From: Patescibacteria group bacterium
Lineage (GTDB): Bacteria > Patescibacteriota > UBA1384 > DATEAH01
Length of the DNA stretch: 64,000 bases
NCBI GenBank assembly: GCA_035288465.1
Contig: DATEAH010000006.1
Span: 27,770 to 91,769 of the forward strand
Direction of reading: 5' to 3'
Shown: piece after piece, positions 3,439 through 43,450 of the stretch
Position numbering within the stretch: the first letter of the stretch is position 1
How the letters are laid out: each line of letters begins with the position of its first letter
Program-made: the position numbers and the translations under genes
The notes under the pieces: model-generated
The model's database searches: none
What the model was told of the DNA's origin: nothing
What the model saw: the letters and a program-made list of their open reading frames with translations, nothing else

Positions 3439-3439
3439 T

Positions 3440-5671: not shown

Positions 5672-5822
5672 AGCCCCCCTTGTGAGCTCCGATGCGATAT
5701 CGGAGCGAATTATGAATCATGAATCGCCTCCTCGGCGATCCACCGAAGAGGTGGATTGAGAATAATAGAATAATTAGAAATTAGACTAATTAGGTTAATT
5801 AGTTAATTCTGTCCTTATTTTA

Positions 5823-9505: not shown

Positions 9506-9510
9506 ACCTC

Positions 9511-9660
9511 TGGAAAATTTCTAATTTCTAATTATTCTAATTTCTAAACAAATCCCAATGTTTAAATTCCCAATAACTAAATTCAGATATTTGAAATTGA
9601 GTAATTGGGTATTCATTAGGTCAATTAGAGTAATTAGGTTAATTGAACTAATTATACCTA
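9511..9660. repeat. AT-rich palindromic MITE-like intergenic repeat, copy R2
   Basis: Contains ctaatttctaaacaaatcccaat plus a taattaggttaatt sub-repeat that is also present at 5781..5810. It is the reverse complement of the ttgtttagaaattag arm seen at 27021, 31738 and 49905. Confidence 0.6.
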
Positions 9661-13978: not shown

Positions 13979-16180
13979 ATGAATAAAGAATTGTCTAAAC
14001 AATACGAGCCGAAAAAAGTTGAGCCTGAAATTTATCAATATTGGGAAAAAGGCAAATTTTTTGAAGCTAATATTGATACCGGCAAAGAACCATTCTGCAT
14101 GATGATTCCGCCTCCAAACGTGACCGGTGAATTGCATATGGGTCATGCTTTAAACAATACGATTATTGACAGCTTGATTCGCTGGCAAAGGATGAAAGGC
14201 AAAAACGCTCTCTATCAGCCAGGTACTGATCATGCCGGCATTGCCACTCAAAACAAAGTTGAGCAAAAATTAGCCAAAGAAGGCAAAACCCGCTTGGATC
14301 TTGGCCGAAAAAATTTTGAGAAAGAGGTTTGGAACTGGAAAAACCAATACGAAAAAAGGATTTTGGGCCAGCTAAAAACTTTGGGCTGTTCGTGTGATTG
14401 GCAACGCAACCGCTTTACGATGGATGCCGAATATACTGAAGCGGTCATGACCGCCTTTAAACATTATTATGATAAGGGTTGGATTTATCAAGGTACGCGC
14501 GTAGTTAACTGGTGCCCGCGTTGCGCAACTTCAATTTCCGATATTGAGGTCAAACACAAACCGCAAAAAACTCTCTTATATTATTTTAAATATGATTTAA
14601 AATTTCCGATTACCATCGCCACCACCAGGCCAGAAACAAAACTTGGCGACACTGGCGTGGCAGTGCATCCCAAGGACAAGAGATATAAAAAATTTATTGG
14701 CAAAACTTTTCAAATTGATTTTGCCGGCCAAAAACGCGAGATCAAAGTGGTCGCCGATTCTTCGATTAATCGCAAATTTGGCACCGGGGCAGTGGGCTTG
14801 ACGCCAGCGCATTCAATAATTGATGAAAAAATCGCGGACAAAAATCACTTGGAAAAAATCAAGATAATTGATGAAAAAATTAGAATGACTGAAGCTGCTG
14901 GCAAGGATTTTGTCGGTTTGCGGCCAAAAGCAGCTCGCGAAAAAGTTGTCGCCTGGTTGCGCGATCAAAAATTAATATCAAGGGAAGTTGAAATCGAGCA
15001 TAATTTATCACTTTGTGATCGCTGTTCAACTACGGTTGAACCTTTGCCGTCTTTGCAATGGTTTTTAAAAATGTCGCAATTGGCTAAACCCGCCATTGAA
15101 GCTGTAAAAACGGGGAAAATTAAATTTCACCCCGCATTTTGGAAAAAAGTGTATTTGGCTTGGATGGAAAATATTGAAGATTGGTGCATTTCCAGACAGC
15201 TTTGGTGGGGACACAGATTGCCGGTATGGCACAAACAGGAAGAAATCCGAAATCCGAAATCCGAAATCCTAAACAAATCCCAATTTCAAAATTCCAAAAG
15301 TTTAGAAATTAGAAATTCGGATTTAGACATTTATGTTGGCGATAATCCGCCTGAAGGTTATGAACAAGTTGAAGATGTTTTAGACACTTGGTTTTCATCA
15401 GCCTTGTGGCCGTTTGCGGCTCTGGGTTGGCCGCAACCATCGCCGGTTTTTCAATATTATTTTCCCACCCAAATTTTGTCAACCGCCCGTGATATTATTT
15501 TCTTATGGGTGGCGAGAATGATTTTTTCCAGCTTGGAGTTAACTGGCGAGATTCCCTTTCGCGATGTTTATATCCATCCGACAATTTTTAATATTGAAGG
15601 CAGGCGCATGTCTAAATCTTTAGGCACTGGTGTTGATCCTTTGGAATTAATTAAAAAATACGGTGCAGATGCGGTTAGATTTGGTTTGCTCGCACAAAAT
15701 ACTGGGGTTCAGGATTTAAAATTTTCCGAAGACACCATCGCGGCTGGTGCAAAATTTGCGAACAAAATTTGGAATGCGGTCAGATTCGTGCGCATGAATT
15801 TGGAAATTTCCGACACCAAACTCCAAAAAATGGACAAAGCCCCAAAAGCGATTACTGACCACGATAAGAAGTTTCTCAACAACTTGAATAATATCATCAA
15901 ATCAACTGATAATAATTTGACGAATTTCCGCTTTGGCCAGACTGCCCAAGAATTATATAACTTTTTCTGGCATACTTTTTGCGATCAATATTTGGAATAT
16001 TCCAAAGAGCAGATGAAAGACGAAAAGCTCAAAAAAAATACCCAAAAAATTTTATATTACACCATTTGCCAAAGTTTGAAATTAATGCATCCGATTATGC
16101 CATTTATTACCGAAGAAATTTGGCGTGAACTCGGTCAAAAAACGCCATTGATAATTTCTGAGTGGCCGAAAAGTCAGTAA
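13979..16180 (+). CDS. valS: Valyl-tRNA synthetase (short form lacking the C-terminal coiled coil) with an in-frame repeat-derived insertion
   Basis: PPPNVTGELHMGHA (HIGH), DWCISRQLWWGHRLP, DTWFSSALWPF and GRRMSKSLG (KMSKS) identify the enzyme. A roughly 30 aa insertion lies between the WCISRQ and DTWFSS blocks. Confidence 0.9.
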   Translation: MNKELSKQYEPKKVEPEIYQYWEKGKFFEANIDTGKEPFCMMIPPPNVTGELHMGHALNNTIIDSLIRWQRMKGKNALYQPGTDHAGIATQNKVEQKLAKEGKTRLDLGRKNFEKEVWNWKNQYEKRILGQLKTLGCSCDWQRNRFTMDAEYTEAVMTAFKHYYDKGWIYQGTRVVNWCPRCATSISDIEVKHKPQKTLLYYFKYDLKFPITIATTRPETKLGDTGVAVHPKDKRYKKFIGKTFQIDFAGQKREIKVVADSSINRKFGTGAVGLTPAHSIIDEKIADKNHLEKIKIIDEKIRMTEAAGKDFVGLRPKAAREKVVAWLRDQKLISREVEIEHNLSLCDRCSTTVEPLPSLQWFLKMSQLAKPAIEAVKTGKIKFHPAFWKKVYLAWMENIEDWCISRQLWWGHRLPVWHKQEEIRNPKSEILNKSQFQNSKSLEIRNSDLDIYVGDNPPEGYEQVEDVLDTWFSSALWPFAALGWPQPSPVFQYYFPTQILSTARDIIFLWVARMIFSSLELTGEIPFRDVYIHPTIFNIEGRRMSKSLGTGVDPLELIKKYGADAVRFGLLAQNTGVQDLKFSEDTIAAGAKFANKIWNAVRFVRMNLEISDTKLQKMDKAPKAITDHDKKFLNNLNNIIKSTDNNLTNFRFGQTAQELYNFFWHTFCDQYLEYSKEQMKDEKLKKNTQKILYYTICQSLKLMHPIMPFITEEIWRELGQKTPLIISEWPKSQ
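15241..15330. repeat. MITE-like palindromic repeat copy R3, inserted in-frame inside valS
   Basis: The DNA agaaatccgaaatccgaaatccgaaatcctaaacaaatcccaatttcaaaattccaaaagtttagaaattagaaattcggatttag matches the intergenic copies at 9537, 27021, 31660 and 49830. It includes the same ctaaacaaatcccaat core and has inverted-repeat ends. It encodes EEIRNPKSEILNKSQFQNSKSLEIRNSDLDI. Confidence 0.65.
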
Positions 16181-16265
16181 ACGGTTAACAATCAACAGTT
16201 AATAACTCTGTGGTCCGAAATAGAGATTGGGGATTATGCCCGCCAAGTCTTAGAACTCACCTTTT

Positions 16266-16387
16266 CAGTATTACCGCGCCCGCCATTACTACGCTCAGGC
16301 GTTGCGGGCGGGTTCATACACGGTTCGTGCTGCGAATATCAGCGGGTTGCACACCAATTATATTAATTTTCTGGAGTGCAGGAGGGG
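16266..16387 (+). promoter_or_regulatory. Conserved structured leader element, copy B, upstream of the TPR gene
   Basis: It shares the same conserved blocks as 3309..3438 at about 85-90% identity. Intervening variable segments could each form their own hairpins. It ends ggagtgcaggagggg. Confidence 0.5.
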
Positions 16388-19154: not shown

Positions 19155-19286
19155 CTTTTTAATTCAAGATTTATATTCTAATTTGACATTTTTAGTCAAT
19201 TTTATGGTATATTATAAATAGTAAAGAATCAAATTTGCTTAGCCTCGCGACGAGGATTATTTTGAGGTTATATATAAAATTCCAAA

Positions 19287-19673
19287 TTGCAACAACCGAT
19301 GACCAATCAAATTACAAATTCCAATCACCAAATAAAATTTGACTTAGAGGAACGTACCTCAAACTTCGGGAAAGAGATAATTAATTTTTCTAAGGGCATT
19401 AAAATAAATCCAATTAATAATCCAATAATTAACCAACTGGTAAGATCCGGAACAAGCGTTGGAGCAAATTATTGTGAAGCAAATGAATCAAATTCAAAAA
19501 GGGATTTTATCCATAAAATATCTATTGCCAAAAAGGAAGCTAAGGAAACCATGTATTGGCTTGGCCTGATAAGTAGTGCCGAACCAACCAAAGAAAATGA
19601 TGCAAAGCAGTTACGTAAGGAAGCTCACGAATTAGTCTTAATATTTTCATCAATAATTAAAAACAAGAAATAA
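19287..19673 (+). CDS. Four-helix-bundle protein (23S rRNA IVS protein / Avd-like family), paralog 1
   Basis: Motif QLVRSGTSVGANYCEANESNSKRDFIHKISIAKKEAKETMYWL matches the LxRSxxSIxANIxE...DF...E signature. It is paralogous to 25676..26050 and 28908..29273. Confidence 0.7.
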   Translation: MQQPMTNQITNSNHQIKFDLEERTSNFGKEIINFSKGIKINPINNPIINQLVRSGTSVGANYCEANESNSKRDFIHKISIAKKEAKETMYWLGLISSAEPTKENDAKQLRKEAHELVLIFSSIIKNKK

Positions 19674-19736
19674 ATTCGCACCTGAATATTGGACATTGAT
19701 TGGTGATTGAAATTTGATAATTGGAATTTATCCTAA

Positions 19737-20933
19737 TTGGGGGGGGCTTTGAAAAAATCAACGAAAATCATTTTAATCGCTTCTGGAACAGTAATATTAG
19801 TAAGCGTTATTTTGATTGTGATTTTTGCCTATATTTCAAAGGCTAGCCCAAACACACCAGAACCAGGACAGCCGAATTTAAAACTACCACCAAAACCTAC
19901 AAATGTTAAAGCCGAGCTGGTTAATGTCCCGGGTAAGGGAAAAGCCATTTATATAACATGGGAAGCGCCTGAAACATACAATATTACTATTACAACATCT
20001 ACACCGACTCTTCCTTCTCGCCCTGGCGAAGGCACCACGCCTCAACAAACCCCAAAAACATATGATTATCATTTTGAAGTTACCATAAACAAAACTTCGC
20101 TTTTTAATGGAAAACCTCAAATTGTAGATGGAATTGTGCCCAGGGACCAAGAAGGTGCTTTTAAAATTGGGAAAAATCGATTTAGATATCAACATTTTAT
20201 TACTTACTCGGATCGAGAACAAAGTTATGGTGTTACAACTATTGCCTCCGGGCAAATCGCCGGATTATATGATAGACCAAATTCTATACCCGTTTATACA
20301 TCTTATAAACCCACCAACCAATCAGATGATGACCTTGCCCGCAATTTAGCCCAAAAATACAGCCAAGCCTGTTCGGATCTTAACGAATTATATAAACCAA
20401 GCAATCGTTCAAAATATTGGTATGATGTCAGCAAAGCCGAAGCCCGGATTCAAGCATTTATTGGAGGCAGTGGTACTGCAATTACCCCATCTGAATTAAC
20501 CGAAGATGGCATTAAATTATATTATCAATTGCAAAATGAGGTTGCAGACGCGAATGCTAATTTAAACGAGCTAAGCGGACGAGGTTGGGATGATGCACAT
20601 TCATTTCCAAGTATCGCAATGTGCGGACCAAGACAGGTGAATATTACAACTTTTGGCAAGATGAAGGAAGAATTAGCAATTTTATCCAAGTCTGCACCTG
20701 GTGCGGGACCAAGTGCTGGAGTAGTTACGGGCGGCAGTGATTGCACACAAAGCAACTTATTAGAAAAAATTAGCTGCGATATTGTTACGGGAATTCTTAA
20801 TTTTTTAGCCCAATCCTTTGATTTTGCTTTAAATTTGGTCAAAGATTGGTCAGGTATTTCAGATTCTCCGGCAACAACCCCAACAACCTCGCCTATACCA
20901 ACTCCCTCCACAGCCCCATCTACTACTCCCTAA
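19737..20933 (+). CDS. Membrane-anchored secreted protein with Ser/Thr/Pro-rich C-terminus
   Basis: An N-terminal TM, a Pro-rich linker and an STP-rich tail (TTPTTSPIPTPSTAPSTTP). TTG start; an alternative TTG at 19749 would give MKKSTKIIL. Confidence 0.45.
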   Translation: MGGALKKSTKIILIASGTVILVSVILIVIFAYISKASPNTPEPGQPNLKLPPKPTNVKAELVNVPGKGKAIYITWEAPETYNITITTSTPTLPSRPGEGTTPQQTPKTYDYHFEVTINKTSLFNGKPQIVDGIVPRDQEGAFKIGKNRFRYQHFITYSDREQSYGVTTIASGQIAGLYDRPNSIPVYTSYKPTNQSDDDLARNLAQKYSQACSDLNELYKPSNRSKYWYDVSKAEARIQAFIGGSGTAITPSELTEDGIKLYYQLQNEVADANANLNELSGRGWDDAHSFPSIAMCGPRQVNITTFGKMKEELAILSKSAPGAGPSAGVVTGGSDCTQSNLLEKISCDIVTGILNFLAQSFDFALNLVKDWSGISDSPATTPTTSPIPTPSTAPSTTP

Positions 20934-20961
20934 ATTAATAATTTATTTAAATTAATATAAT

Positions 20962-23589
20962 ATGAATAAAACCAAAAAGATTTTTCTAATTTATTTAATT
21001 ATTTTTATGCTTTCTATTTTTATTTTACCGAAAGCAATCTTTGCACAAAGTTCAGCGGATAACCAGCAGAATGCCAACCAAACAAATACCACTAATTCTA
21101 CAAATTCCACCAATCCTCTCCCGGGTACGGTTGTCACTGGATCAAACGACCCAACAGCCGCCGAACATCGCAGCCTTTCGACACAATTAAGGAAAAATAA
21201 TTTTATTAAAGAAGCTTGGAAGTATGTTTTAGCCCTTTTAAATGCTGTCGTAGTTTTAGGTTTAATTTTTATCGCCTTGGCTAATATGTTGAGAATTAAT
21301 GTTGAAACATATGAAATCAGGCGAATGCTACCGGCAATTATTATCGGTGTAATTTTAGCGAACTTTAGCTATTTAATTTGCCGAGTAATGGTTGATTTTA
21401 CCCAGGTGTTAGCTGACTTTTTTATTAAAGGCGTTACCGGCCAAGATCTTTTGGTTGTTTTTGGTTTCGCGGATTTGGCGCCGGGTGATACTGCACCAAC
21501 TGTGGGGACAATGCTTAAAGTTTTAATGGCATTTAACATTGGCGGCGGGGTTATTACAGGTGTTGCGACTGGCGGTTTAGGCGGAGCACTTTTTATCATT
21601 GGTGGCGCTTTTTTAATTATTGGGGTACCATTTTTATTAATTTTGTTTATTGGTTTGTTGTTGGCAGTTCGAATTTATATGATTTGGGCATTAGTAATCT
21701 TGTCGCCAATCGCCTTTTTCGGCTTATTTTTTACGCCAATAACTAAATTCACTTGGCAAACCTGGTGGAGCATGTTTGTACGCTGGATCTTTTTTGCCCC
21801 GTTTTCTTTTGTTTTTATTAAATTAGCAACAATTGTGGCTAAATCCAGCTGGCCTGAGGGCTCTGGCCCAGGTTTTGCAAAATGGTTTTTTGGGGTAGTG
21901 CTTTTTGCTTTAGCAATTTATATTCCCTATATGCTCGGTGGGAAAATCGTTTCCGGCTGGACCGGTTTATGGAAAAGCGCCGCTAGATACGGCGCAATCG
22001 GGTTAGATAAAGGTAGAAAAGGGGTTGGGGCCTGGGTTACTGGCAGATATAAAGACGAAAATAGGTGGCAAAATAAATTTGGAAAGGCTTTAATGTTTAG
22101 CCCATCAGTTGTTTGGGCTGATAGAGTAAAACAGTCGCAAAAAGACGTTGAATTAGCAACGCGCACCGGTCCACTCAGATCCATCGGAGGAAAGAGATCT
22201 TTAACTGAAACAAGAATTGGGTTTGGAGAAGCAATGGCCGGCAAAGATCTTGCATTATCAGAAAGTATTTTTACTGCTGCACCAACGAGAAACCCAAATG
22301 TCAATAGGTCGGGAATTGATGAATACATCCAAAACAAAGCAGCTAACCCCAAATATCAACTTGCCGGCGACGATGCAATATTAATTGCTGGAGAATCATG
22401 GATAGGCGAAGCGAAAAGGCAAGCGCAACAAGGAGAAGCTAATGCTCAAACTTTAATGTGGCGCCATTTTAATAATGCTGGGGTTGATTTAAATAATCCC
22501 CTCACCAAACAACAGGAAAAAAACCAGTTCTTAAAAGAAGCCAAGGAATCCTATGACGCTGGCTATAAACGGACCCAATCGGTTGCGGGAACTGTTATTG
22601 GACAAGTTGAACCACCTCCGGGCGGTGGACCCATAGCTGGTGGTCCGGGTGGTCCCGAAGGTCCATCAACTCTACCAAATTTTAATAAGGAATTAGAAAT
22701 TTCCGAACCATTAAGGGTTCATCTTCAACCTGAGATAGAAAGCGGCAGATTAAAACTAAGTGATGTCAGAGCCGCTATTAGAGAACTGGAAAATCCATTG
22801 GCAGGAGACTCAAGCTTTGTAATGAATAGGGCTTTTAGTTTTGTCCAAAGATATACCCCGACCGAAAAAGTTGAAATCGGACACTTAAAAGGAAATCGAG
22901 AAGAATTGCTTAAACATTTACAAAATATGGAAAGTTTGGGAAGAGCGATTAAAGATAATCCTGGGGTAACCCCGGAAGTCATTAAACAAAAACATTTAAT
23001 AAACTTAACGCAAGACTGGGATGTTGGGCAAATTCATGATACAATTTCGGGTGCAACTCAAGGAAAAACCCCTGAAGGAATCCGGGCTGCTTTAAATGAA
23101 GATACATTAAAAGTACCGTTAAAACAGAAAGTTTTGACATATTTAACTACCTCGGGTGTAGGTGTCGAACAAGCCAAAAAACAACTTGATGCAACTTATG
23201 GTGATCTGGTTGATAATCTAAGCAAGTTACCTGCAGGAAGAACAACTCGTAGCGCAACCTCTGAAATATTATTAAGATATACAAAACCTACTCTAAAAGT
23301 TACTGAAACACCTGGTCCTGCTCCAATTCCCAATAAACCTGCTGCTCCCGCCTCTGCATCAACACAAGCTCCCGGCGCTCCCGGTGGCACTGCTCCTGCC
23401 ACGTCAGCAAAAACCAACCCTACCAATTCTGCGGCTCCTGAAGTTAGCGGCAAAACACCTTTCACCGATAAAGATATTGAGAATTTAACGAACCAGATTA
23501 ATGTTGAGCGTGCATCTGGTAATTTCGAAAAGTCTTATCAGCTAACAGAAACTAGAAATAAAATGATTGAAGAAAGAAAAATGAAATAA
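20962..23589 (+). CDS. Large polytopic membrane protein with Asn-rich signal region and a roughly 550 aa C-terminal domain; VirB6/ConG-like by architecture
   Basis: A signal peptide, at least 6 TM helices between aa 90-330, then a soluble domain ending in a Pro/Ala-rich tail. The call rests on topology and T4SS gene context only. Confidence 0.35.
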   Translation: MNKTKKIFLIYLIIFMLSIFILPKAIFAQSSADNQQNANQTNTTNSTNSTNPLPGTVVTGSNDPTAAEHRSLSTQLRKNNFIKEAWKYVLALLNAVVVLGLIFIALANMLRINVETYEIRRMLPAIIIGVILANFSYLICRVMVDFTQVLADFFIKGVTGQDLLVVFGFADLAPGDTAPTVGTMLKVLMAFNIGGGVITGVATGGLGGALFIIGGAFLIIGVPFLLILFIGLLLAVRIYMIWALVILSPIAFFGLFFTPITKFTWQTWWSMFVRWIFFAPFSFVFIKLATIVAKSSWPEGSGPGFAKWFFGVVLFALAIYIPYMLGGKIVSGWTGLWKSAARYGAIGLDKGRKGVGAWVTGRYKDENRWQNKFGKALMFSPSVVWADRVKQSQKDVELATRTGPLRSIGGKRSLTETRIGFGEAMAGKDLALSESIFTAAPTRNPNVNRSGIDEYIQNKAANPKYQLAGDDAILIAGESWIGEAKRQAQQGEANAQTLMWRHFNNAGVDLNNPLTKQQEKNQFLKEAKESYDAGYKRTQSVAGTVIGQVEPPPGGGPIAGGPGGPEGPSTLPNFNKELEISEPLRVHLQPEIESGRLKLSDVRAAIRELENPLAGDSSFVMNRAFSFVQRYTPTEKVEIGHLKGNREELLKHLQNMESLGRAIKDNPGVTPEVIKQKHLINLTQDWDVGQIHDTISGATQGKTPEGIRAALNEDTLKVPLKQKVLTYLTTSGVGVEQAKKQLDATYGDLVDNLSKLPAGRTTRSATSEILLRYTKPTLKVTETPGPAPIPNKPAAPASASTQAPGAPGGTAPATSAKTNPTNSAAPEVSGKTPFTDKDIENLTNQINVERASGNFEKSYQLTETRNKMIEERKMK

Positions 23590-23619
23590 AATAATACAAT
23601 AAAAAGAAAAGGAATAAAT

Positions 23620-24309
23620 ATGTTTAGATTATTTGGTGGTGGTCGCGGACCAGAGGGTATGCCAGACCATTCAACTGTCGGGCCAGAAGCTGAAAGATCC
23701 AATACGCCACCTCAACCTCCCCAAGATACTCCACAAACCCTAGACCCTTCTGAACCCTCAATAACAAATCAACCAGAAACAGGAGAAAATATTTTTATAG
23801 CTGTTCCCAAAGAATTAGCGCAAGAAGTTTTACCTACCATTCAATATATTTACAAAAATAATATAGATAAATTTATATTAAAAAGAAGCCACGATCCAAT
23901 CGCTACATTATTAAATCCGGAGCGAATTAAATCCGCAGGAGAAGAAAGACGGATCGACCAACTCGCTGAGGAAAAAATTACCAAAGGCGAAGCCGAAAAC
24001 CTCGATGAAGCAAGACAAAAATTACTTTATGAACATATTTATGCACCACCGATGGCTCAGCATCTTGATCAATTAAGACGAGGATTAGGCGCAGAAGAGA
24101 AAATAAATTTAACTTTTTTGACGGACAATTTACAAAGCCGGTTTGATCATGAAGATGGAGTAGCAAAGGGCGATCTAAAACACTGGAGTTACGAAAAACA
24201 CGGAGGAAAGGGTCCATCAAAAGAAACGGTCAAAAAATCCGAAAAAGAACGCGATAAAATGGATCGATTTTTAAAGGAATTGGCTAAGTTAATTCCGCCT
24301 AAATCATAA
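23620..24309 (+). CDS. Hypothetical protein
   Basis: A 229 aa ORF with a Pro-rich N-terminus and no recognisable motif. Confidence 0.4.
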   Translation: MFRLFGGGRGPEGMPDHSTVGPEAERSNTPPQPPQDTPQTLDPSEPSITNQPETGENIFIAVPKELAQEVLPTIQYIYKNNIDKFILKRSHDPIATLLNPERIKSAGEERRIDQLAEEKITKGEAENLDEARQKLLYEHIYAPPMAQHLDQLRRGLGAEEKINLTFLTDNLQSRFDHEDGVAKGDLKHWSYEKHGGKGPSKETVKKSEKERDKMDRFLKELAKLIPPKS

Positions 24310-24319
24310 GAGGAAGAAA

Positions 24320-25090
24320 ATGAATATATCGCCAGAAATGTCGCCAGAATTATTATCCCATGAAGGAAAACCAGTCTTTGCTGATTCACCAGAAACAGGT
24401 GATAATAGGTTAAAGATTGAATTCGCGGGGTTTGACCATGAAAAAGCCCCCATCAACGAATCGGAAATTAAAGATAAAGTTGCATGGCTAAAAGATGGCT
24501 TAGACAAAGAAGATCTCCAACCAGGATTGGTTGAGACTCTAATTAGCAAAATAGAATATAATCCTGTTCAAGTAGAAATTGATGAAAAATATGGTCTTGA
24601 GGGTAATGGGGCGCCTCATAAAGCTGCTGCATATTGTTATTTCATGGAAGGCAAAATTGTTTTTTATGACGCAGTTGCAAGTTGTAAAAGTTTTAATTAT
24701 ATTTTAGCCCACGAATTCGGTCATTTGGTTGCGACCCAAACCATGACCGAACCAGCCCGAGCCACATATTTAGCCAAGCGTGCCGATTTGTTGGCACAAG
24801 GAAAAATCCAAGACACGAGATATGTTGCCGGCATGAACGAAGATCTCAAGGATGGCGAAAGATTGGCTGAAGATTTCGCCTTATTAATGACTGATCAAAA
24901 AATGAATCGGGAATTAAGTCAGGCCCTAAAAGAAGCTATCAGGTCCAATTCGGCCGAACAAACTAAAATTAATTTACAAGCATCAATCGAGCGAGCCAAA
25001 AATATTCCTGACCAAGATAAACGTTTTGAAGATTCAAGTTTGATGGGAAGTTTAGAATATCCACGCAAGAAAAAACCCGGCGAAATATAA
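24320..25090 (+). CDS. Putative zinc metallopeptidase-like protein (HExxH)
   Basis: Contains ILAHEFGHLVATQ. No signal peptide is evident. Confidence 0.35.
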   Translation: MNISPEMSPELLSHEGKPVFADSPETGDNRLKIEFAGFDHEKAPINESEIKDKVAWLKDGLDKEDLQPGLVETLISKIEYNPVQVEIDEKYGLEGNGAPHKAAAYCYFMEGKIVFYDAVASCKSFNYILAHEFGHLVATQTMTEPARATYLAKRADLLAQGKIQDTRYVAGMNEDLKDGERLAEDFALLMTDQKMNRELSQALKEAIRSNSAEQTKINLQASIERAKNIPDQDKRFEDSSLMGSLEYPRKKKPGEI

Positions 25091-25179
25091 AAACAGGTTA
25101 TAGCTTTTAGGTTTCAGTTTCTAGAAAAAACCAAAAACCGACAACTATAAGCTAGCAAATAGAATCTAAAAAGGGAAAT

Positions 25180-25686
25180 ATGCAATTTGAGGTGCCGCAA
25201 AAAATTGATTTAGAAGACAAGGTAATCGGACCACTAACTTTAAAGCAGTTCTTTTATCTTTTGGCAGGTGGGATGCTTGATTATATTTGGTTTCGATTTT
25301 TCAGTTTTGCTATTTTCGTGATTTTGGCTTTGCCCACCACCGCCTTTTTTGTGGCCATGGCTTTGGCTCGAGTTCAAGATCAGCCTTTTCCAAAATTTTT
25401 AGGCAGTTTAGTTTTATATACCCTGCGACCAAAACAAAGAACCTGGGGTCGAGGCGCTCCCCTGCCAAAATTAATGGTGCGAACACCAAAATTAAAACAA
25501 GAGATCCAACCAGAAACTAAAAAAATGTCACCCGGGGAACTTGAAAAATTGGCGACAATCTTAGATACTAAAGGTTGGGACAAGGGTGAACCCGAGATGA
25601 AAGAAAGGGTAGTTTCACAGCCCGAAGCTCGTCCCAAACTTAATGTAGAGACGAATTCAAAATTAAAAAATCAAAATGCAAAATGA
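25180..25686 (+). CDS. Small two-TM membrane protein, possible VirB3/PrgI-like
   Basis: A 168 aa ORF with a hydrophobic hairpin (FFSFAIFVILALPTTAFFVAMALA) located just upstream of the VirB4 homolog. This is inference from context. Confidence 0.3.
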   Translation: MQFEVPQKIDLEDKVIGPLTLKQFFYLLAGGMLDYIWFRFFSFAIFVILALPTTAFFVAMALARVQDQPFPKFLGSLVLYTLRPKQRTWGRGAPLPKLMVRTPKLKQEIQPETKKMSPGELEKLATILDTKGWDKGEPEMKERVVSQPEARPKLNVETNSKLKNQNAK

Positions 25687-26050
25687 TAATGAAAATTTTA
25701 AAAATGAATTCAAAAAAAGACTATACTGTTTTGTCTTAAGGCTAATCAAATTTATAGAAAGTCTGTCAAAAAATGATATAGTTTGTAAAACTATTGGTAG
25801 CCAATTACTTAGAAGCGGAACAAGTATTTTAGCAAATTTTGTAGAGGCTAAATCCGCCAGCTCCAAAAGAGATTTTATTAATTTCTTTACGCATTCATTA
25901 AAATCCGCCAATGAATCAAAAATGTGGTTATGTTTATTAAAAGATACGGACAGAGGAAATAAAAACGAATTAAAATTTCTTCTTAAAGAATTAACTGAAA
26001 TATCAAAAGTAATCGCTTCGAGCATATTAACCCTTAAGGGTAAAAAATAA
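25676..26050 (+). CDS. Four-helix-bundle protein (Avd-like family), paralog 2
   Basis: Contains QLLRSGTSILANFVEAKSASSKRDFINFFTHSLKSANESKMWL. It overlaps the preceding gene by 11 nt. Confidence 0.7.
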   Translation: MQNDNENFKNEFKKRLYCFVLRLIKFIESLSKNDIVCKTIGSQLLRSGTSILANFVEAKSASSKRDFINFFTHSLKSANESKMWLCLLKDTDRGNKNELKFLLKELTEISKVIASSILTLKGKK

Positions 26051-26136
26051 TTTTGAATTTTAAACTGTCACTTTGATTTTTACATTTTGCAGTTTGAATT
26101 ATGGAAGTATAAACAACAATAACATAAAGAGGGGCA

Positions 26137-26916
26137 ATGACTAGTTCTAGTTCTGGATTTGGTTCAAATTCGAAGCAGGCGCAGAAGAAAAAAGAAACTA
26201 CCCAGGCTCATTTGCCGATCGCCGAGATTCGAAATGGCTGCGTGGTTTTAAAAGACGGCAGTTTGCGTTTGGTGCTTTTGGTTTCCACTATTAATTTTGA
26301 CCTGAAAAACGAGGACGAGCAAAACGCCCTGGTTTATGCATATCAGAATTTTTTGAATTCCCTGACTTTCCCAATCCAAATTGTGATGCAATCGCGACGA
26401 ATTGATTTGTCGGGCTATTTATCAGAGTTAAGCGCCAGATTGCCGCAAATCGAAAATCCCCTTTTACAGCTTCAGATTGAAGATTATTCAGCGTTTATTC
26501 AAAAATTAATTACTGTCGCCAATATTATGAATAAAAAGTTTTTTATCGTCATCCCTTTTTTCCCGCCAGCCCTGAAACAAACGGCTGGTTTTTGGGAAAA
26601 AGCTAAATCTGCGATCACGGCGCAAGAACCAGTCATTGACATGACTCATTTTGAAGAATACCGCAAAGAATTGATCCAGCGGGCACAAGCAGCCGCTTCC
26701 GGATTAGCGGCTTTAGGTTTGCGAGCAATTCAACTGACAACTCAAGAATTAATTGAATTATATTACCAAAGTTATAACCCAGAATTGGCGGTCCGTGAAA
26801 AATTAATCCCGATTGAGCAATTATCCGCGGCGGTCAGCCAAAGCCGAGACCAAACGCCACCAAGCTCACCACCAACCAACAATTACGGACAAGGTCCAGC
26901 CGCCAATAAGCAGTAA
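26137..26916 (+). CDS. VirB4/TrbE-like N-terminal domain protein (split VirB4, part 1)
   Basis: LPIAEIRNGCVVLKDGSLRLVLLVSTINFDLKNEDEQNALVYAYQNFLNSL resembles the VirB4 N-terminal region (…vLKDGS…e…g.~fe…). Confidence 0.45.
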   Translation: MTSSSSGFGSNSKQAQKKKETTQAHLPIAEIRNGCVVLKDGSLRLVLLVSTINFDLKNEDEQNALVYAYQNFLNSLTFPIQIVMQSRRIDLSGYLSELSARLPQIENPLLQLQIEDYSAFIQKLITVANIMNKKFFIVIPFFPPALKQTAGFWEKAKSAITAQEPVIDMTHFEEYRKELIQRAQAAASGLAALGLRAIQLTTQELIELYYQSYNPELAVREKLIPIEQLSAAVSQSRDQTPPSSPPTNNYGQGPAANKQ

Positions 26917-26974
26917 ACATCCGCCAGCTGGCGGAAACAGACAGCAATCATCAATTACCAATCAAATCTTAAGT

Positions 26975-27056
26975 ATCAAATTCTAAACCGTTTGGAATTT
27001 GAAAATTTAAATTTTAAAAATTGTTTAGAAATTAGGATTTAGAGATTAGAATTTAA
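26975..27056. repeat. MITE-like palindromic repeat copy R4, between the two VirB4 parts
   Basis: Contains ttgtttagaaattaggatttagagattagaattt. It is flanked by GC-rich palindromes ccgccagctggcgg (26922-26935) and aagcccccatgggctt (27058-27073). Confidence 0.55.
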
Positions 27057-27084
27057 CAAGCCCCCATGGGCTTGAAGGAGCTGA

Positions 27085-28860
27085 ATGCCATTTTTAGGAG
27101 ATTTAAGATCAGGTCAAAAATCAGGCACGGAAAAAACCTATCGAGAAGGCTTGGCTTCGGTATTGGATTTAATTGCACCGGGCGATTTTATTGTCACCCC
27201 AAATTATCTGCAAATTAACCAATATTATGTGAAGACTTTATTTGTCTATACATACCCGCGATATTTATACACTAATTGGCTTTCGCCGGTCATCACTTAT
27301 GACGTCACCATGGATTTAGGCATGTTTGTTTATCCGGTGGAAAGCCGTAAAGCCTTAGAGGATTTAAAAAACCGGATTGGGCAGATGGAATCGGCATACC
27401 GAATGGAAAAAGAAAAAGGCTTGGTATCAGATCCTGAATTAGAAACCGCTATGCAAGATGTCGAGTCGTTACGATTTGCCCTACAAAAAGGCGAAGTTAA
27501 ACTTTTCAAGTTTTCACTTTATTTTACGATTTTTGCCAAAACTCCCGAGGAATTAGAAACCGTCACCCAACAACTCGAGAGCCATTTGGGCGGCAAATTG
27601 ATTTACACCAAGCCGGCATTTTTGCAAATGGAAGAAGGCTTTCACTCCACCTTGGCTTTGGGCTTAGATAATATTATGATTACTCAGAATTTGGACACCG
27701 GTTCGGTTTCTTCTACTTTTCCTTTTACCTCAACTGAATTGACCTCAAATGACGGCATTTTATACGGCATTAACCGCCACAACAATTCGCTGATTTTATT
27801 TGACCGCTTTGCTCTGGAAAACGCCAACATGGTGGTTTTTGGCAAGTCAGGCGGCGGTAAAAGCTACGCGATTAAATTAGAAGCGTTGCGGTCTTTGATG
27901 TGGGGTACGGACGTGATTGTCATTGACCCAGAAGATGAATACCGCAAATTAGCCGAATCCGTGGGCGGCACTTATTTAGAAATTTCGGTTAAATCCAAAC
28001 AGCGCATCAATCCGTTTGATCTGCCGAAAATTTCTGAAAATGAAACCGGCGAAGACGTTTTGCGGGAAGCGGTGGTTTCCGCGCATGGTTTGATTAACTT
28101 GATGGTTGGCGGTTTAACACCGGCCGAAGATGCACTGTTGGATCGCGCTTTGTTTGAAACCTATGCAATTAAGGATATTACCGTAGATCCGGTTTCACAT
28201 AAGAATCCCCCACCACTCTTGACGGATCTGCACAATGTGTTGAAAAATATGCGCGGTGCGGAAAATATTGTTTACAAGTTATCCAAATATACCGAAGGTT
28301 CATTTGCCGGCTTATTCAACCAGCCCACAAATGTGAATTTAGGCTCAGGATTTATTGATTTTTCGATTAAAAACTTGGAAGACCAGCTGCGCCCAGTCGG
28401 AATGTATTTGATTTTGAATTTTATTTGGCAAAAGGTCAAGTCTGAGATGCGTCGCCGAATTCTGATTGTTGATGAGGCGTGGTGGATGATGCAATACGAA
28501 GACTCAGCGCAATTTTTGTCAGGTTTGTGCCGGCGAGCCCGAAAATATTATTTGGGCGTCTCGGTGATTTCTCAAGATGTGGAAGATTTTTTGGCGAATA
28601 AATATGGCAAAGTGATTGTGAGCAACTCTGCTTTGCAGTTATTGTTAAAACAGTCACCGGCATCGATTGATAAAATTTGCGAGGTTTTTAATCTTACCGA
28701 AGGTGAAAAGTTTCTAATTTTAGAAGCCGACGTTGGCGAAGGGTTATTTTTTGCCGGTTTAAATCATGTCGCGATTAAGGTTATTGGTTCATATACCGAA
28801 GACCAAATTATTACTTCTGATCCGAAACAGATTCTGGCGATGCGGGGCAAAGCCGCGTAG
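27085..28860 (+). CDS. VirB4/TrbE-family conjugation-type ATPase (split VirB4, part 2)
   Basis: Walker A VVFGKSGGGKSYAI and Walker B RRILIVDEAWWMM at a size of 591 aa. Preceded by an AAGGAG SD. Confidence 0.7.
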   Translation: MPFLGDLRSGQKSGTEKTYREGLASVLDLIAPGDFIVTPNYLQINQYYVKTLFVYTYPRYLYTNWLSPVITYDVTMDLGMFVYPVESRKALEDLKNRIGQMESAYRMEKEKGLVSDPELETAMQDVESLRFALQKGEVKLFKFSLYFTIFAKTPEELETVTQQLESHLGGKLIYTKPAFLQMEEGFHSTLALGLDNIMITQNLDTGSVSSTFPFTSTELTSNDGILYGINRHNNSLILFDRFALENANMVVFGKSGGGKSYAIKLEALRSLMWGTDVIVIDPEDEYRKLAESVGGTYLEISVKSKQRINPFDLPKISENETGEDVLREAVVSAHGLINLMVGGLTPAEDALLDRALFETYAIKDITVDPVSHKNPPPLLTDLHNVLKNMRGAENIVYKLSKYTEGSFAGLFNQPTNVNLGSGFIDFSIKNLEDQLRPVGMYLILNFIWQKVKSEMRRRILIVDEAWWMMQYEDSAQFLSGLCRRARKYYLGVSVISQDVEDFLANKYGKVIVSNSALQLLLKQSPASIDKICEVFNLTEGEKFLILEADVGEGLFFAGLNHVAIKVIGSYTEDQIITSDPKQILAMRGKAA

Positions 28861-28907
28861 CGACTTCAAACTCTAAGCACGAAACTCTAATTACTAAACA
28901 AACTACA

Positions 28908-29273
28908 ATGACACAAATTTCAAATAACAAACAATACGATTTGGAAGATAGAACACTTAAGTTTGCCAAAACTATTATCCGGTTTATTAACAAATTACCC
29001 AAAACTATTTCTAATATTGAAATTGCCAGACAACTAATTAGATCTGCGGGTTCAATTGGTGCAAACTATATTGAAGCTAACGAGTCGTTAAGCAAAAAAG
29101 ATTTTATTATGAGAATAAAAATTTGTAAAAAAGAAGCGAAGGAAAGTCGTTATTGGCTCAATTTGATTGAAATAATTAAAAACCCCGAATTAGATGAAGA
29201 AAGATTAAACTATCTTCAAGAAACTACTGAATTGATGAAAATTTTTGGTTCAATATTAGAAAAAATAAAATAA
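28908..29273 (+). CDS. Four-helix-bundle protein (Avd-like family), paralog 3
   Basis: Contains QLIRSAGSIGANYIEANESLSKKDFIMRIKICKKEAKESRYWL. Confidence 0.7.
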   Translation: MTQISNNKQYDLEDRTLKFAKTIIRFINKLPKTISNIEIARQLIRSAGSIGANYIEANESLSKKDFIMRIKICKKEAKESRYWLNLIEIIKNPELDEERLNYLQETTELMKIFGSILEKIK

Positions 29274-29280
29274 TTTTTTG

Positions 29281-29345
29281 GGATTTTGGAAAATTAATAT
29301 TTATTATTTGTTTAGAATTTAGATATTATAATTTAGGATTTAACT
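29281..29345. repeat. MITE-like repeat copy R6
   Basis: atttgtttagaatttagatattataatttaggatttaac is similar to the right arm of the other copies. Confidence 0.45.
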
Positions 29346-29349
29346 TACA

Positions 29350-30543
29350 ATGGATTTATCTGAATTTAAAGAAAAACTTAACCATTGGTGGGCTTTCCCG
29401 TGTTGTGGTTGCGCATTAATTTTGGCATTAATTATAATTACCATCGCCGCTCTTGCTAGCACCTATACTAAATCACTTGGCGACCAAACCCCAGCTGGCG
29501 GCGGTGCTGGTGTTTGTAGTAACGTTCCTGCGCCATATGATAAAATTTTTGGTACCGCCGGAGACAAGTGGAAAGTTCAGCCAGGTTTTTTGGCAGCAAT
29601 TTTTGTTGCTGAACATGGACCAGTAATACGATATCGATCAGGATATAGTCCGGTTACTTCAAAAACTGCTGAATTTCCTGAAGCGGGTGGCGATCCCGAA
29701 GCAATAATAAAATGGGAAACATCCAGCGCTGGAGCCTTAGGTCCAATGCAATTTATGCCCGGAACATGGCCTGGTTATGCTCAAGATGCAAACGGAGATG
29801 GAAGCACCGATCCTCAAAATATTGTTGATGCCGCCTTTGCTTCTGCAAAATATTTAGCGATGGCCGGAGCTGGAGGAAATACTACCGACCTTGACAAGTT
29901 AAGAGATGCCGCCTCCCAATATAATAGCGGCCGACCATGGAGTCAGGGACAGAATATTAGAGAAACGAGCAGATATGTACCAAAAGTAATTAATAAGTTT
30001 CAACAATTCTATTGTGACGCAGGCGGCGCCGGTTATGCTGCAATAACAGGTAAAACATATTATCCTGTTAAGCCGCCGATTATTAGCTTTGGCAATAGCC
30101 GGCACCATTGCACACGAAATCGACCCTCTCCATGTAATCCTAATGGAACAGGACACAGTAAATTTCATAAAACTGGAGTTGCTATTGGGGATGCGGTTGA
30201 TTTAAAAAGTGGGGCTGGTAATCAAATTTATGCTATTTTTGACGGAGTGGCTGAAAAAAGATATACGAGGAGTGGTGGATTTAGTCACCTCAGGCTACAT
30301 TCTGCTTCAAATTCCGTAGTATTTGCAAATTATGCCCATATAAACGCAACCAAAACTGGAAGGGTTAATGCTGGAGACATAATTGGTTATTATGGAGTTG
30401 GGGCTGGACATCTCCATTTCGAATTGTGGCCGAATGAAGGCAAATCGATAGAAGGAGACCCCGCACGAGGAAGTGGCGCTGCTTATTGCAAATCAATTTG
30501 GGAAAATATGGCAAAATTCTTAGGATTAAGTCCATACCCATAA
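29350..30543 (+). CDS. Bifunctional cell-wall hydrolase: lytic transglycosylase (SLT-like) plus M23 peptidase (VirB1/CwlT-like)
   Basis: An N-terminal TM, then GALGPMQFMPGTWPGYAQDANGDGSTDPQNIVDAAFASAKYL (an SLT catalytic region), then a C-terminal HLHFELW M23 motif. Confidence 0.7.
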   Translation: MDLSEFKEKLNHWWAFPCCGCALILALIIITIAALASTYTKSLGDQTPAGGGAGVCSNVPAPYDKIFGTAGDKWKVQPGFLAAIFVAEHGPVIRYRSGYSPVTSKTAEFPEAGGDPEAIIKWETSSAGALGPMQFMPGTWPGYAQDANGDGSTDPQNIVDAAFASAKYLAMAGAGGNTTDLDKLRDAASQYNSGRPWSQGQNIRETSRYVPKVINKFQQFYCDAGGAGYAAITGKTYYPVKPPIISFGNSRHHCTRNRPSPCNPNGTGHSKFHKTGVAIGDAVDLKSGAGNQIYAIFDGVAEKRYTRSGGFSHLRLHSASNSVVFANYAHINATKTGRVNAGDIIGYYGVGAGHLHFELWPNEGKSIEGDPARGSGAAYCKSIWENMAKFLGLSPYP

Positions 30544-31639: not shown

Positions 31640-31640
31640 A

Positions 31641-31772
31641 AAATTCTAAATCCTGAATCCGAGATCCTAAACAAATTCTAATTTTCCAAATTACAAATTT
31701 CAAACAAGTTTGAGATTTAAAACATTGGAATTTAAATATTGTTTAGAAATTAGTGCTTAGGATTTCGAATTT
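31641..31772. repeat. MITE-like palindromic repeat copy R7 (most complete)
   Basis: Left arm gagatcctaaacaaattctaattttcc and right arm attgtttagaaattagtgcttaggatttcgaattt. It is followed by a ccugcc-UUCG-gcggg tetraloop hairpin (31774-31788) just 5' of the AAGGAGGGG SD. Confidence 0.6.
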
Positions 31773-31803
31773 ATCCTGCCTTCGGCGGGACTAAGGAGGG
31801 GTT

Positions 31804-36466: not shown

Positions 36467-36557
36467 GATCATTTAATAAACAGCTAACAGTAAATGATTA
36501 ACAATAAATAAATCAAGCGGCAATGTTTAATATTGTTAATTATTAATTGTTGGTTGC

Positions 36558-36845
36558 TTATTGTTTATAGATCTTTGTTCTAATGTGCCGGATGAGATCT
36601 TTTTTTAATTTATGGTTAATTTTTTTAATTAATTCCGCAGACTTAAAACGAATTTCTCCGGCGAGAATTGGATGAGAGGTTTGTAAAACCAAAGTATTAT
36701 TTTTAAAAGATGCGGCGCTAATTTCGTCATTTTTTATTATTTCATCAATGACTTGCTGAGCGCAATAACAAACCCAGGCTGATTCAATCGGAGATTGGCC
36801 TTTTTTCTTTTTGTTTAAAATATTTTCAATTTTATCAAAAGACAT
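36558..36845 (-). CDS. DUF721/DciA-like protein downstream of recF
   Basis: A 95 aa ORF at the canonical position following dnaA-dnaN-recF. The call rests on size and context. Confidence 0.45.
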   Translation of the reverse strand: MSFDKIENILNKKKKGQSPIESAWVCYCAQQVIDEIIKNDEISAASFKNNTLVLQTSHPILAGEIRFKSAELIKKINHKLKKDLIRHIRTKIYKQ

Positions 36846-39055: not shown

Positions 39056-39357
39056 TTTTTTATTCTCCTTTTTAGGGTTGGTTCTAAATCTTATTTATCC
39101 ACAGGTTTATGTTTAATTTAAAAGTAATTAAATAAATTAGTAGTAATAATAAGGGTTAAAAAAACAGTGGATAACTAGGTTTTTAAATAAGAATTAAGGT
39201 GGATAATATGAGGACAATTTAAACCTAAATTATGGATAAGATGAGGATAATTTGTGGATAAGATTATCCATAATATTTTTTATTTTTTAGAGTTTGATAT
39301 TAATTTTTATTTAAGTGTTAAATCTTCCACAACTTATCCACAAGTTCTGTGGATAAG
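39056..39357. promoter_or_regulatory. DnaA-box cluster (oriC candidate) between dnaN and dnaA
   Basis: Perfect or near-perfect TTATCCACA/TGTGGATAA boxes at 39095-39103, 39166-39175, 39198-39206, 39231-39239, 39253-39261, 39265-39273, 39334-39342 and 39348-39356, in AT-rich DNA. Confidence 0.7.
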
Positions 39358-43213: not shown

Positions 43214-43351
43214 TTTTGTGCGGGACAAATCCTCTCTCCACCGCCAATTGGTGATATAATAAAAATAGTAAACAATTAATATTTATGCGTGTAATTTATT
43301 TATTGTTGGTCGTTATCTGCTAACCGTTAATTGATAAGCCCGCCTAAGTTT

Positions 43352-43450
43352 AGTGTTCGCCTTTTGGGAACTATTCGTTCACGGCTTACGCCGCACTTTA
43401 GCGACGGGCTGCACAACCTATTTGATAATAAATAATAGAGTGCAGGAGGG
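43352..43450 (+). promoter_or_regulatory. Conserved leader element, copy C (shorter and degenerate at the 5' side), upstream of pilB
   Basis: gggctgcacaacctattt, an AT-rich spacer, then agagtgcaggagggg immediately before the GTG start. The upstream gttcacgg...gccgcac block resembles the gttcatgcacg blocks of copies A and B. Confidence 0.4.

Follow-up and report, generated by a model that had tools for sequence, protein, structure and literature searches.

We have analyzed a stretch of 64,000 nucleotides (nt) from the genome of a Patescibacteria group bacterium (contig DATEAH010000006.1, positions 27,770 to 91,769; called here the window), and have found that three of its genes, coding for small four-helix-bundle (4HB) proteins of the PF05635/TIGR02436 family, are each the cargo of a cassette of ca. 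460–480 nt bracketed by inverted arrays of heptamers. The three cassettes lie in a gene cluster that resembles a type IV secretion system (T4SS). Arms and open reading frame (ORF) travel together, and close relatives have at the junctions concerned either a cassette, or nothing, or a palindrome without an ORF. We think it probable that the three genes are the cargo of selfish cassettes of the same type as the intervening sequences (IVSs) of ribosomal RNA, inserted here in transcribed spacer regions of a protein operon. The best reading of the data is that these cassettes are functionally unconnected with the T4SS-like machinery and do not belong to a diversity-generating retroelement (DGR). 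What is new here is a conserved cross-phylum cassette architecture that joins orphan Avd-like genes, rRNA IVSs and heptamer repeats. We found no paper linking inverted heptamer arrays to the 4HB family in a search of the openly accessible literature, so that a prior description is possible.

Inverted heptamer arrays around three 4HB genes

The three ORFs and their scores against the two family profiles are the following:

19299–19673, + strand: 4HB-1, 124 amino acids (aa) from its ATG; PF05635 64.1 bits, TIGR02436 85.6 bits
25676–26050, + strand: 4HB-2, 124 aa; PF05635 65.3 bits, TIGR02436 77.4 bits
28908–29273, + strand: 4HB-3 (W_D in the comparisons below), 121 aa; PF05635 57.4 bits, TIGR02436 79.2 bits

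An earlier note on this DNA, made from the sequence alone, had reported three ORFs at these places on the + strand and assigned them to this family. Both points hold, since the curated cut-offs (33.8 bits for PF05635 and 24 bits for TIGR02436) are passed by all three, with 57–65 and 77–86 bits, respectively. Exactly three 4HB ORFs were retrieved by a six-frame hmmsearch of the window, the next match having E=0.3. A start of 4HB-1 at the TTG in 19287 would give 128 aa; the ATG at 19299 is the one chosen by the gene callers on identical public contigs. The proteins are 34–47% identical in pairs, and the R..S...N..E...D F...E...W pattern that the earlier note had recognized is invariant among them. 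Within the motif GxxRxxxSxxxNxxE, conserved in the family (PMC3936711), our alignments show the R, S, N and E to be invariant or almost invariant.

The AlphaFold2 (AF2) model of 4HB-3 (pLDDT 92) is a single-domain four-helix bundle with helices at residues 13–28, 34–59, 63–86 and 93–120. Its residues 1–8 are disordered and encoded by the arm of the cassette, and no signal peptide or transmembrane segment is apparent in the model. The best Foldseek match was 2RLD (TM-score 0.71–0.79), with 2GSC at 0.66–0.78, and the same two structures were found by a profile search of the PDB (E=8e-31 and E=1e-26, respectively). Both are S23p-family relatives deposited with five chains each, and by analogy with these deposits the window proteins may form a homopentameric ring.

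The cassettes, whose ends are approximate, their arms and the conserved block upstream of the first of them are:

19183–19255, + strand: promoter-like block (TTGACA-N19-TATATT) and leader hairpin CCTCGCGACGAGG, upstream of E1, kept in the relatives L091 and L093
19277–19733, + strand: cassette E1, whole insertion, in the 5' leader of the T4SS-like operon
19277–19321, + strand: left arm of E1, imperfect heptamers aaaattc, caaattg, caacaac, cgatgac, caatcaa, attacaa, with the ATG inside
19684–19729, + strand: right arm of E1, reverse complement of the left arm, 33/45 positions complementary
25646–26122, + strand: cassette E2, between the PrgI-family gene and the TraC-like gene
25654–25703, + strand: left arm of E2, aattcaa, aattaaa, aaatcaa, aatgcaa, aatgata and further units, spanning the PrgI stop codon (25684–25686) and the 4HB ATG (25676)
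26051–26100, + strand: right arm of E2, 35/50 positions complementary to the left arm
28864–29345, + strand: cassette E3, between the VirB4-like ATPase gene and the SLT/M23 hydrolase gene
28868–28935, + strand: left arm of E3 in two registers (28868–28902 and 28886–28935), of the AAAYTCTAA..CTAAACAAA family, with the ATG at 28908
29273–29343, + strand: right arm of E3, registers 29273–29323 and, outer, 29309–29343; 36/49 positions complementary

The order of the parts is the same in the three cases. An A-rich left array of ca. 6–8 imperfect heptamers (45–50 nt) lies over the start codon, followed by the ORF of ca. 120 aa and by a T-rich right array. The latter is the left array in reverse complement and begins at the 4HB stop codon or a few bases past it. 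The arms are 45–50 nt long, their heptamers are degenerate and 70–75% of their positions are complementary. The 4HB gene is the only ORF inside and has the orientation of the host operon. We detected neither a transposase nor a reverse transcriptase (RT) within the cassettes, and no promoter of their own was identified. As the earlier note had pointed out, each of the ORFs occupies a gap immediately upstream of one of the cluster genes.

The limits of the insertions come from the comparison with closer relatives found by protein search (L091, L093, L094 and L095). E1 interrupts the promoter-plus-leader block conserved in L091 and L093: the common sequence ends at GGTTATATAT (19276) and the homology restarts at TAATTGGGGGGGG, past the right arm. 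The promoter call upstream of E1 rests on this conservation; a sigma-70/terminator scan was unusable as evidence, with 54 promoter-like sites versus 39 expected in AT-rich DNA. There is no motif similar to a Shine-Dalgarno sequence (SD) upstream of 4HB-1. In the case of E2, the homology of PrgI with L091, L093 and L094 stops at '..PKLN(V/I)' and restarts at the SD of the TraC-like gene, and the left arm encodes the final 12 residues of the window PrgI, replacing the C-terminal tail of this protein.

E1 and E3 gave a strong inverted-repeat signal around the ORF, and E2 a weaker one. The duplex of the E1 arms reached −45.8 kcal/mol versus −27.2 ± 4.2 for shuffled sequences (z=−4.4, 0/300 shuffles as good), and that of E3 gave z=−3.2 (1/300 as good). 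When 1284 control ORFs were taken as reference, the inverted-repeat score of E1 fell in the top 0.3% and that of E2 in the top 1.25%.

The earlier note had described two of the three genes as adjacent to repeats like those of MITEs (miniature transposable elements with inverted repeats). The repeats are certainly present, but they bracket all three genes and belong to the insertion itself; the defining anatomy, i.e., the inverted heptamer arrays that enclose each ORF, was not part of that description. Besides, ORF-less palindromes of the cassette heptamer families were found at seven other sites of the window:

26964–27062, no strand assigned: ORF-less palindrome of a cassette heptamer family at the TraC-like/VirB4 junction, where L095, L008 and L035 have a 4HB cassette
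31640–31780, no strand assigned: ORF-less palindrome of ca. 140 nt with arms of ca. 65 nt, past the last cluster gene
5762–5826, ca. 9500–9625, 36475–36562 and 49825–49935: ORF-less heptamer palindromes, intergenic
15243–15324: heptamer palindrome of a cassette-arm family, in frame inside the ORF of a class-I aminoacyl-tRNA synthetase (aaRS; 13979–16180)

The motif TTGTTTAGAAATTAG occurs eight times in the window versus 0.8 expected. At least two heptamer families are represented among the palindromes, AAATYC/CTAAAC and TAACAGT, the latter being the arm family of the cassettes and palindromes of L091 and L093. The palindrome of the aaRS gene adds ca. 17 residues ('..EIRNPKSEILNKSQFQNSKSLEIRNSD..') compared with the L091 orthologue and is the single in-frame case seen. 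It resembles the palindromic elements of Rickettsia, which also enter a housekeeping gene in frame, although the sequence family and the host clade differ.

Occupancy of the junctions and generality of the architecture

We have compared five junctions of the cluster: A, between SpoIID and the first cluster gene; P, before PrgI; B, PrgI/TraC-like; C, TraC-like/VirB4; and D, VirB4/hydrolase. Their contents, with the VirB4 identity to the window in brackets, are:

Window (100%): A, cassette; P, none; B, cassette; C, ORF-less palindrome; D, cassette
L091 (87%): A, short unrelated spacer; P, none; B, ORF-less palindrome; C, empty; D, cassette
L093 (87%): A, ORF-less palindrome; P, none; B, ORF-less palindrome; C, empty; D, cassette
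L094 (85%): A and P, outside the contig; B, C and D, empty
L095 (70%): A, outside the contig; P, B and C, cassette; D, empty

The empty junctions of L094 are gaps of 8–33 nt (ca. 33 nt at PrgI/TraC-like), and junction D measures only 10–13 nt in L094 and L095. The 4HB proteins encoded at site D in the window, L091 and L093 are mutually 17–32% identical, despite the VirB4 of the two relatives being 87% identical to that of the window. W_D is 73% identical to the protein encoded at another junction, B, of L095 (L095_B), and the arms are homologous too; actually, the whole E3 unit, arms and ORF, is homologous to L095:4010–4496 at the PrgI/TraC junction. Similarly, 4HB-2 is 54–55% identical to the L095 copies at P and C, both of them other junctions. 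The earlier note had named selfish cassettes as one alternative, and this pattern speaks for it: occupancy varies among close relatives, non-orthologous 4HBs share a junction and the nearest homologue is at a different one. The dN/dS among the 4HB proteins was 0.11–0.21 with dS saturated (0.11 for 4HB-3 versus L095_B), and the ORFs are therefore maintained by purifying selection.

A wider set of 80 GTDB loci was retrieved through VirB4, the closest being metagenome-assembled genomes (MAGs) of Patescibacteria (candidate phyla radiation, CPR) of the Berkelbacteria/Kazan type, with at most 64% VirB4 identity. PrgI, TraC-like and VirB4 genes were syntenic in every locus where they were found. 4HB genes appeared in 6 of the 80, at varying junctions, and were absent from the PrgI/TraC-like junction in all 78 loci in which both genes were found. 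Thus, in the comparison with related genomes that the earlier note had suggested, the 4HB insertions are not conserved in position nor syntenic components in all relatives. An iterated profile gave 10 further 4HB ORFs in those six loci, 13 with the three of the window, and the clusters of L004 and L095 stack 3–4 copies. All 13 ORFs had an inverted-repeat score in the top 8.6% of the controls, 11 of them in the top 1.25%.

The same architecture is apparent in an independent sample of 80 metagenomic loci with a 4HB of the W_D subfamily, 75 of whose ORFs could be scored. A score of at least 12 was found in 77% of them versus 2.8% of the controls (Mann-Whitney p=4e-31). The best self-match offset was 7 nt in 77/99 right flanks. 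The arm sequences are unrelated between cassettes, and the match of one arm to the other within a cassette exceeds that to the arms of other cassettes (medians 17.25 vs. 12, Wilcoxon p=2.5e-8). The upstream arm was A-rich on the coding strand in 97/107 cassettes (22/27 in a diverse subset), and an SD-like motif preceded 8/103 4HB ORFs as opposed to 20/27 host genes. The downstream neighbor was co-oriented in 60 of 71 cases, a single cassette being antisense to both neighbors, and the 18 4HB ORFs found in T4SS-type loci (three in the window, 10 in the GTDB loci and five in L091, L093 and L095) are all on the cluster strand. T4SS genes were near only 2 of the 80 metagenomic loci, the other 78 being located elsewhere, and the 29 downstream neighbors of metagenomic 4HBs fall into 52 different, unrelated Pfam families. 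A search for rRNA contexts (4HBs in ORF-free DNA, 86 metagenomic ORFs) yielded one weak candidate, L151.

The family is very large, with 15,554 clusters at 50% identity, and orphan, Avd being its sole characterized relative. A protein search with W_D gave at least 8000 matches; the best 120, which were listed, are 58–75% identical apart from one truncated exact copy, and the sources named among those listed include MAGs of Nitrospirota, Planctomycetes, Deltaproteobacteria, Euryarchaeota and Microgenomates. We inspected three distant relatives with ca. 70% identity (FabA/4HB/KAS; ABC-transporter auxiliary/4HB/DUF4340; NirD-like/4HB). All are co-oriented insertions with 'AAATYC..CTAAAC' arms as in W_D, and the GC content of their ORFs is 7–9 points below that of the surrounding locus. 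Since the cassette type is variable among close relatives and is found in unrelated operons of many phyla, its members appear as selfish passengers and not as parts of a secretion system.

The family members on annotated plasmids are concentrated in heterocystous cyanobacteria. The gene NPUN_RS35560 of Nostoc punctiforme PCC 73102 (plasmid pNPUN02) lies between (CAATTCG)x4.5 and the reverse complement of this array, with 35/36 positions complementary, and the 4HB of N. flagelliforme CCNUN1 (pNFSY05) is flanked by (AATTCAA)x4 with 31/31. A plasmid of Chlorohelix (Chloroflexota) has a 4HB with arrays of the ATGAAGG type. These cultured Nostoc share the anatomy in their plasmids. N. punctiforme is genetically tractable, and the mechanism is thus open to experiment. 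Two other plasmid copies are in cas loci, between cas2 and cas1 in antisense in Anabaena cylindrica (pANACY.01; L182) and between csx2 and cas1 in sense in Pseudanabaena galeata (pPg_04; L186). Genes annotated as 23S_rRNA_IVP have been found scattered in cas loci and interpreted functionally (PMC3936711; PMC10910872). Our two cases exemplify such 'CRISPR-associated' reports and are more simply explained by the insertion of a cassette. No 4HB relatives were found in the viral contigs of IMG/VR, the phage families of PHROGs or the defense systems of PADLOC.

Likeness to rRNA intervening sequences and alternative explanations

The inverted heptamer arrays link the 4HB genes of the window to the ORF-bearing IVSs of 23S rRNA. 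That of Coxiella burnetii has 428–444 nt, a terminal stem of 28 bp and an S23p ORF whose SD is poor, and RNase III excises this IVS (PMC4990558); an ORF-bearing IVS of Leptospira is cited within the same paper. The cassettes described here share with them the size (428–444 nt in Coxiella, ca. 460–480 nt here), the terminal inverted repeats around an S23p/PF05635 ORF, the poor or absent SD and the existence of short ORF-less forms, and the IVSs are likewise regarded as selfish (PMC4990558). There are also clear differences. Helices 9, 25 or 45 of the 23S rRNA are the sites of the IVSs, whereas our cassettes are in an mRNA leader and in inter-cistronic spacers. No rRNA was found in the window, in which Rfam detects two tRNAs only, and the flanks of the cassettes are protein genes. 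The arms are degenerate heptamer arrays of 45–50 nt with 70–75% complementarity instead of the near-perfect 28-bp stem of Coxiella. Finally, the ORF is under purifying selection here, while in Coxiella it is decaying and apparently untranslated (PMC4990558).

As the anatomy equals that of the ORF-bearing IVSs, the pairing of a stem, its processing and the binding of the 4HB protein can be proposed also for the operon RNA. The cassette would be transcribed by read-through from the host promoter, and the two arrays could then pair on the RNA in an imperfect stem of 45–50 bp enclosing the ORF, as in the rRNA IVSs. Processing by an RNase III-type, double-strand-specific activity would release or insulate the ORF-bearing loop; the flanking cistrons would thereby stay functional and the insertion be tolerated. 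The 4HB protein, a relative of the nucleic-acid-binding pentamer Avd, would most likely bind to the stem or the array of the cassette that encodes it and promote the persistence or copying of this cassette.

A number of observations weigh against considering the three genes as the cargo of IVS-type selfish cassettes. The arm duplex of E2 is weak (z=−1.6 versus shuffles). The folds of the whole E1 and E3 elements were no stabler than those of shuffled sequences (z=−0.17 and −1.1, respectively), although terminal pairing does appear in their minimum free energy structures and this z-score test is uninformative at whole-element length. Transition mismatches compatible with G:U pairing were 196 in the sense strand of the arms versus 210 in the antisense (p=0.52), and with no strand asymmetry an inverted repeat at the DNA level fits equally well as an RNA stem. 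No target-site duplication or exact boundary was resolved, the flanks of the empty sites in L094 and L095 being too diverged. The ten contigs L081–L090 show 100% identity to the window in the cassettes and palindromes that they span, with no filled/empty polymorphism or ongoing movement seen, and in the 18 contigs with an identical VirB4 protein the same three junctions are all occupied by these cassettes. This population therefore has the cassettes fixed.

Site D raises a further point of the same kind. The cell-wall hydrolase gene downstream of VirB4 differs in each relative while the flanking genes are conserved, i.e., it is a variable slot of the cluster (SLT+M23 in the window, 29350–30543; Glucosaminidase+NlpC/P60 in L091:12210–13310; DPBB+Peptidase_C39 in L093:12204–13253; NlpC/P60 in L094:3244–4446). 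With the hydrolase swapped at this site, the non-orthologous 4HBs could come by recombination of a larger segment. The location of the three window copies within the T4SS-like cluster has a probability of roughly p=0.007 by junction count, so that a model of purely random insertion is insufficient. Lastly, the phylum labels of the MAG contigs rest on binning.

An alternative that we consider unlikely is that of a non-autonomous transposable cassette acting at the DNA level (a MITE or 'mobile insertion cassette'), with the 4HB as a passenger and no RNA stem. The arrays would then be terminal inverted repeats (TIRs) or single-stranded DNA hairpins for a transposase located elsewhere, either DDE or Y1 of the IS200/RAYT type. 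The cassettes are indeed similar to MITEs, mobile insertion cassettes and the REPIN-RAYT system in having inverted repeats round a short transposase-less unit and dispersed intergenic ORF-less palindromes. The RAYT arrangement is also one of a gene flanked by inverted copies of a dispersed repeat. The coexistence of inverted arms and ORF-less derivatives in one genome, the lack of a strand-specific G:U signal, the absence of an enzyme inside, the variable occupancy and the concerted evolution of the two arms of a cassette all speak for it. However, there was no transposase in the 64 kb of the window or in the neighbors examined, the enclosed gene codes for neither an HUH nor a DDE enzyme, and the arms are tandem heptamer arrays and not a fixed TIR or REP. 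The copies within the genome, instead of being near-identical, have only 34–47% aa identity and different arms. Furthermore, the combination of 4HB and arms is kept across subfamilies with 17–25% identity and across several phyla, in spite of the arms being unrelated, which is unexpected for an arbitrary passenger. The strong purifying selection, the bias to the host strand and the fixed polarity with the A-rich arm upstream indicate that the expression of the ORF matters.

It is rather improbable that the cassettes are domesticated operon punctuation, in which the arrays would tune RNA processing, stability or attenuation between cistrons, and hence the stoichiometry of the products, and the 4HB would be an RNA-binding regulator beneficial to the host. 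Consistent with this possibility are their intergenic, co-oriented position directly upstream of genes, their fixation and identity in all the sampled contigs of the population, the purifying selection on the protein and the ORF-less palindromes found at the same junctions in relatives. Nevertheless, close relatives such as L094 keep the operon with empty junctions, one junction can hold different 4HB subfamilies and the GC content of the ORFs is 6–11 points below the window mean of 38%. The in-frame palindrome within the aaRS gene is also the behavior of a selfish element.

We give very little credit to the two remaining possibilities. The earlier note had proposed chaperone-like accessory factors of the secretion system, and accessory subunits of the T4SS-like apparatus could explain why the three window copies are in the cluster and why those of L095 and L004 are stacked, but this does not stand in view of the absence of 4HB from most relatives' clusters, the lack of conservation of positions and subfamilies, the 78/80 loci of the same subfamily located elsewhere among diverse neighbors, and a model with neither signal peptide nor transmembrane segment apparent.

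It is equally improbable that we are dealing with orphan Avd subunits for a DGR located elsewhere in the genome. DGRs are frequent in CPR genomes, the fold of 4HB-3 resembles that of Avd (4DWL), with which a five-chain assembly would also be shared judging from 2RLD and 2GSC, and precomputed Pfam annotation flags bAvd (PF22296) on the 4HB copies of L091 and L093. In fact, the label 'Avd-like' used by the earlier note is adequate at the level of the fold (TM-score 0.65–0.71) but not of the sequence: Avd was only rank 11 in Foldseek (12% identity, E=0.11), behind 2RLD and 2GSC, it was not reached by the 4HB profile search of the PDB at E≤1 and the window proteins had no match to PF22296 at E≤0.01. 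PF05635 has been noted as an Avd-like Pfam of the same broad superfamily (PMC10053308). Neither RT nor a pair of template and variable repeats (TR/VR) is adjacent, and the earlier note was right that the 64 kb window has none. Those parts of the 98-kb source contig that were examined also lack an RT, an ORF with YxDD/GxxxSQ or a TR/VR-like repeat, and the direct repeats of at least 45 nt in the window are only heptamer arms, tRNAs, two paralogous radical-SAM genes and the leader copies described below. The anatomy seen here, of three divergent copies that each have inverted arms of their own, is not that of a DGR, and we know of no description of Avd genes bracketed by inverted heptamer arrays. 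A link of PF05635 with the HEPN superfamily was dropped, as the HEPN survey paper does not mention PF05635.

Returning to the IVS-type cassettes, an excess of heptameric repeats between the genes of Xanthomonas and Nostoc has been reported (Rehm et al., 2015, PMC4692102), and 70–75 convergent (inverted) heptamer pairs close together were found in Xanthomonas (PMC4692102). Cyanobacterial heptanucleotide repeats are cited in that work for Calothrix PCC 7601. It mentions S23p or four-helix-bundle genes zero times and reads the G-rich repeats as quadruplex formers (PMC4692102). The likeness to our arrays lies in their being tandem and intergenic and, in the Nostoc plasmids, in inverted arrays that bracket 4HB genes. 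Cyanobacterial repeats of this kind go by the name of STRR.

More tentatively, and with doubts larger than those about the three genes themselves, we suggest that the S23p 4HB and the inverted heptamer arrays may constitute a self-contained, unrecognized class of mobile element, with the small 4HB pentamer, which does not look like an enzyme, as its own mobility or maintenance factor that would act on the stem or array made by the arms. One type of element could then be behind the ORF-bearing 23S IVSs, thousands of orphan 'Avd-like' operon genes (including those of cas loci) and the heptamer excess of Nostoc, Xanthomonas and CPR, and Avd might be a domesticated offshoot. Members of the family are routinely read as parts of the host operon, in cas loci, in polysaccharide loci and here in the T4SS-like cluster. 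If they are cassette cargo across phyla, with a DNA signature that can be recognized, the annotations of 4HB genes through guilt by association should go, the ORF-bearing rRNA IVSs would gain a concrete source population and the intergenic heptamer excess a testable explanation.

The surrounding cluster and other features of the window

The cluster around the 4HB genes is a T4SS-like cluster of the Gram positive type, with genes for a PrgI-family protein, a TraC-like protein, a VirB4-like ATPase, a protein of 875 aa and the SLT+M23 hydrolase. The 875-aa protein has no Pfam match and sits where relatives have a TrbL/VirB6-like protein; its L091 counterpart gave a faint match to TrbL_3. Ca. 15 kb from the VirB4 cluster there are four tandem small genes with T4SS_pilin/TrbC matches (45177–46915, − strand), adjoined by a PilB/T2SSE-type ATPase gene (43451–45172, + strand). 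The T4SS-like cluster is located in the chromosomal origin region, beside dciA, recF, dnaN, dnaA, rnpA and yidC. A cluster of DnaA boxes (TTATCCACA-like, some in inverted pairs) was found at 39185–39346, between dnaN (37943–39055, − strand) and dnaA (39358–40704, − strand), and this region is probably oriC.

A conserved GC-rich leader of ca. 170 nt is present in four copies:

3260–3445, + strand: directly upstream of ORF 3422
16215–16386, + strand: directly upstream of ORF 16376
43290–43458, + strand: directly upstream of the PilB-like ATPase gene (43451)
ca. 48350–48500, − strand: directly upstream of a solute-binding protein gene (48346, − strand)

At the end of all of them, GGAGTGCAGGAGGG directly adjoins the start codon (4 occurrences versus 0 expected). 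RNAalifold on three aligned copies gave a long-range GCCCGCC/CGGGC helix and a CTGCAC/GTGCAG hairpin, with 9 compensatory pairs. The leader had no Rfam match at E≤1 and is a candidate for a new cis-regulatory RNA.

Two paralogous genes for B12-binding radical-SAM proteins (51196–52644 and 54598–56037, − strand) are separated by 3.4 kb within a glycosyltransferase/lipid-like cluster. The longest direct repeats of the window are due to them and are thus not a TR/VR pair. Close to the other end, at 101–1596 (− strand), there is a restriction-modification pair formed by a BsaWI-like type II endonuclease (PF18643) and an N6/N4 DNA methylase.

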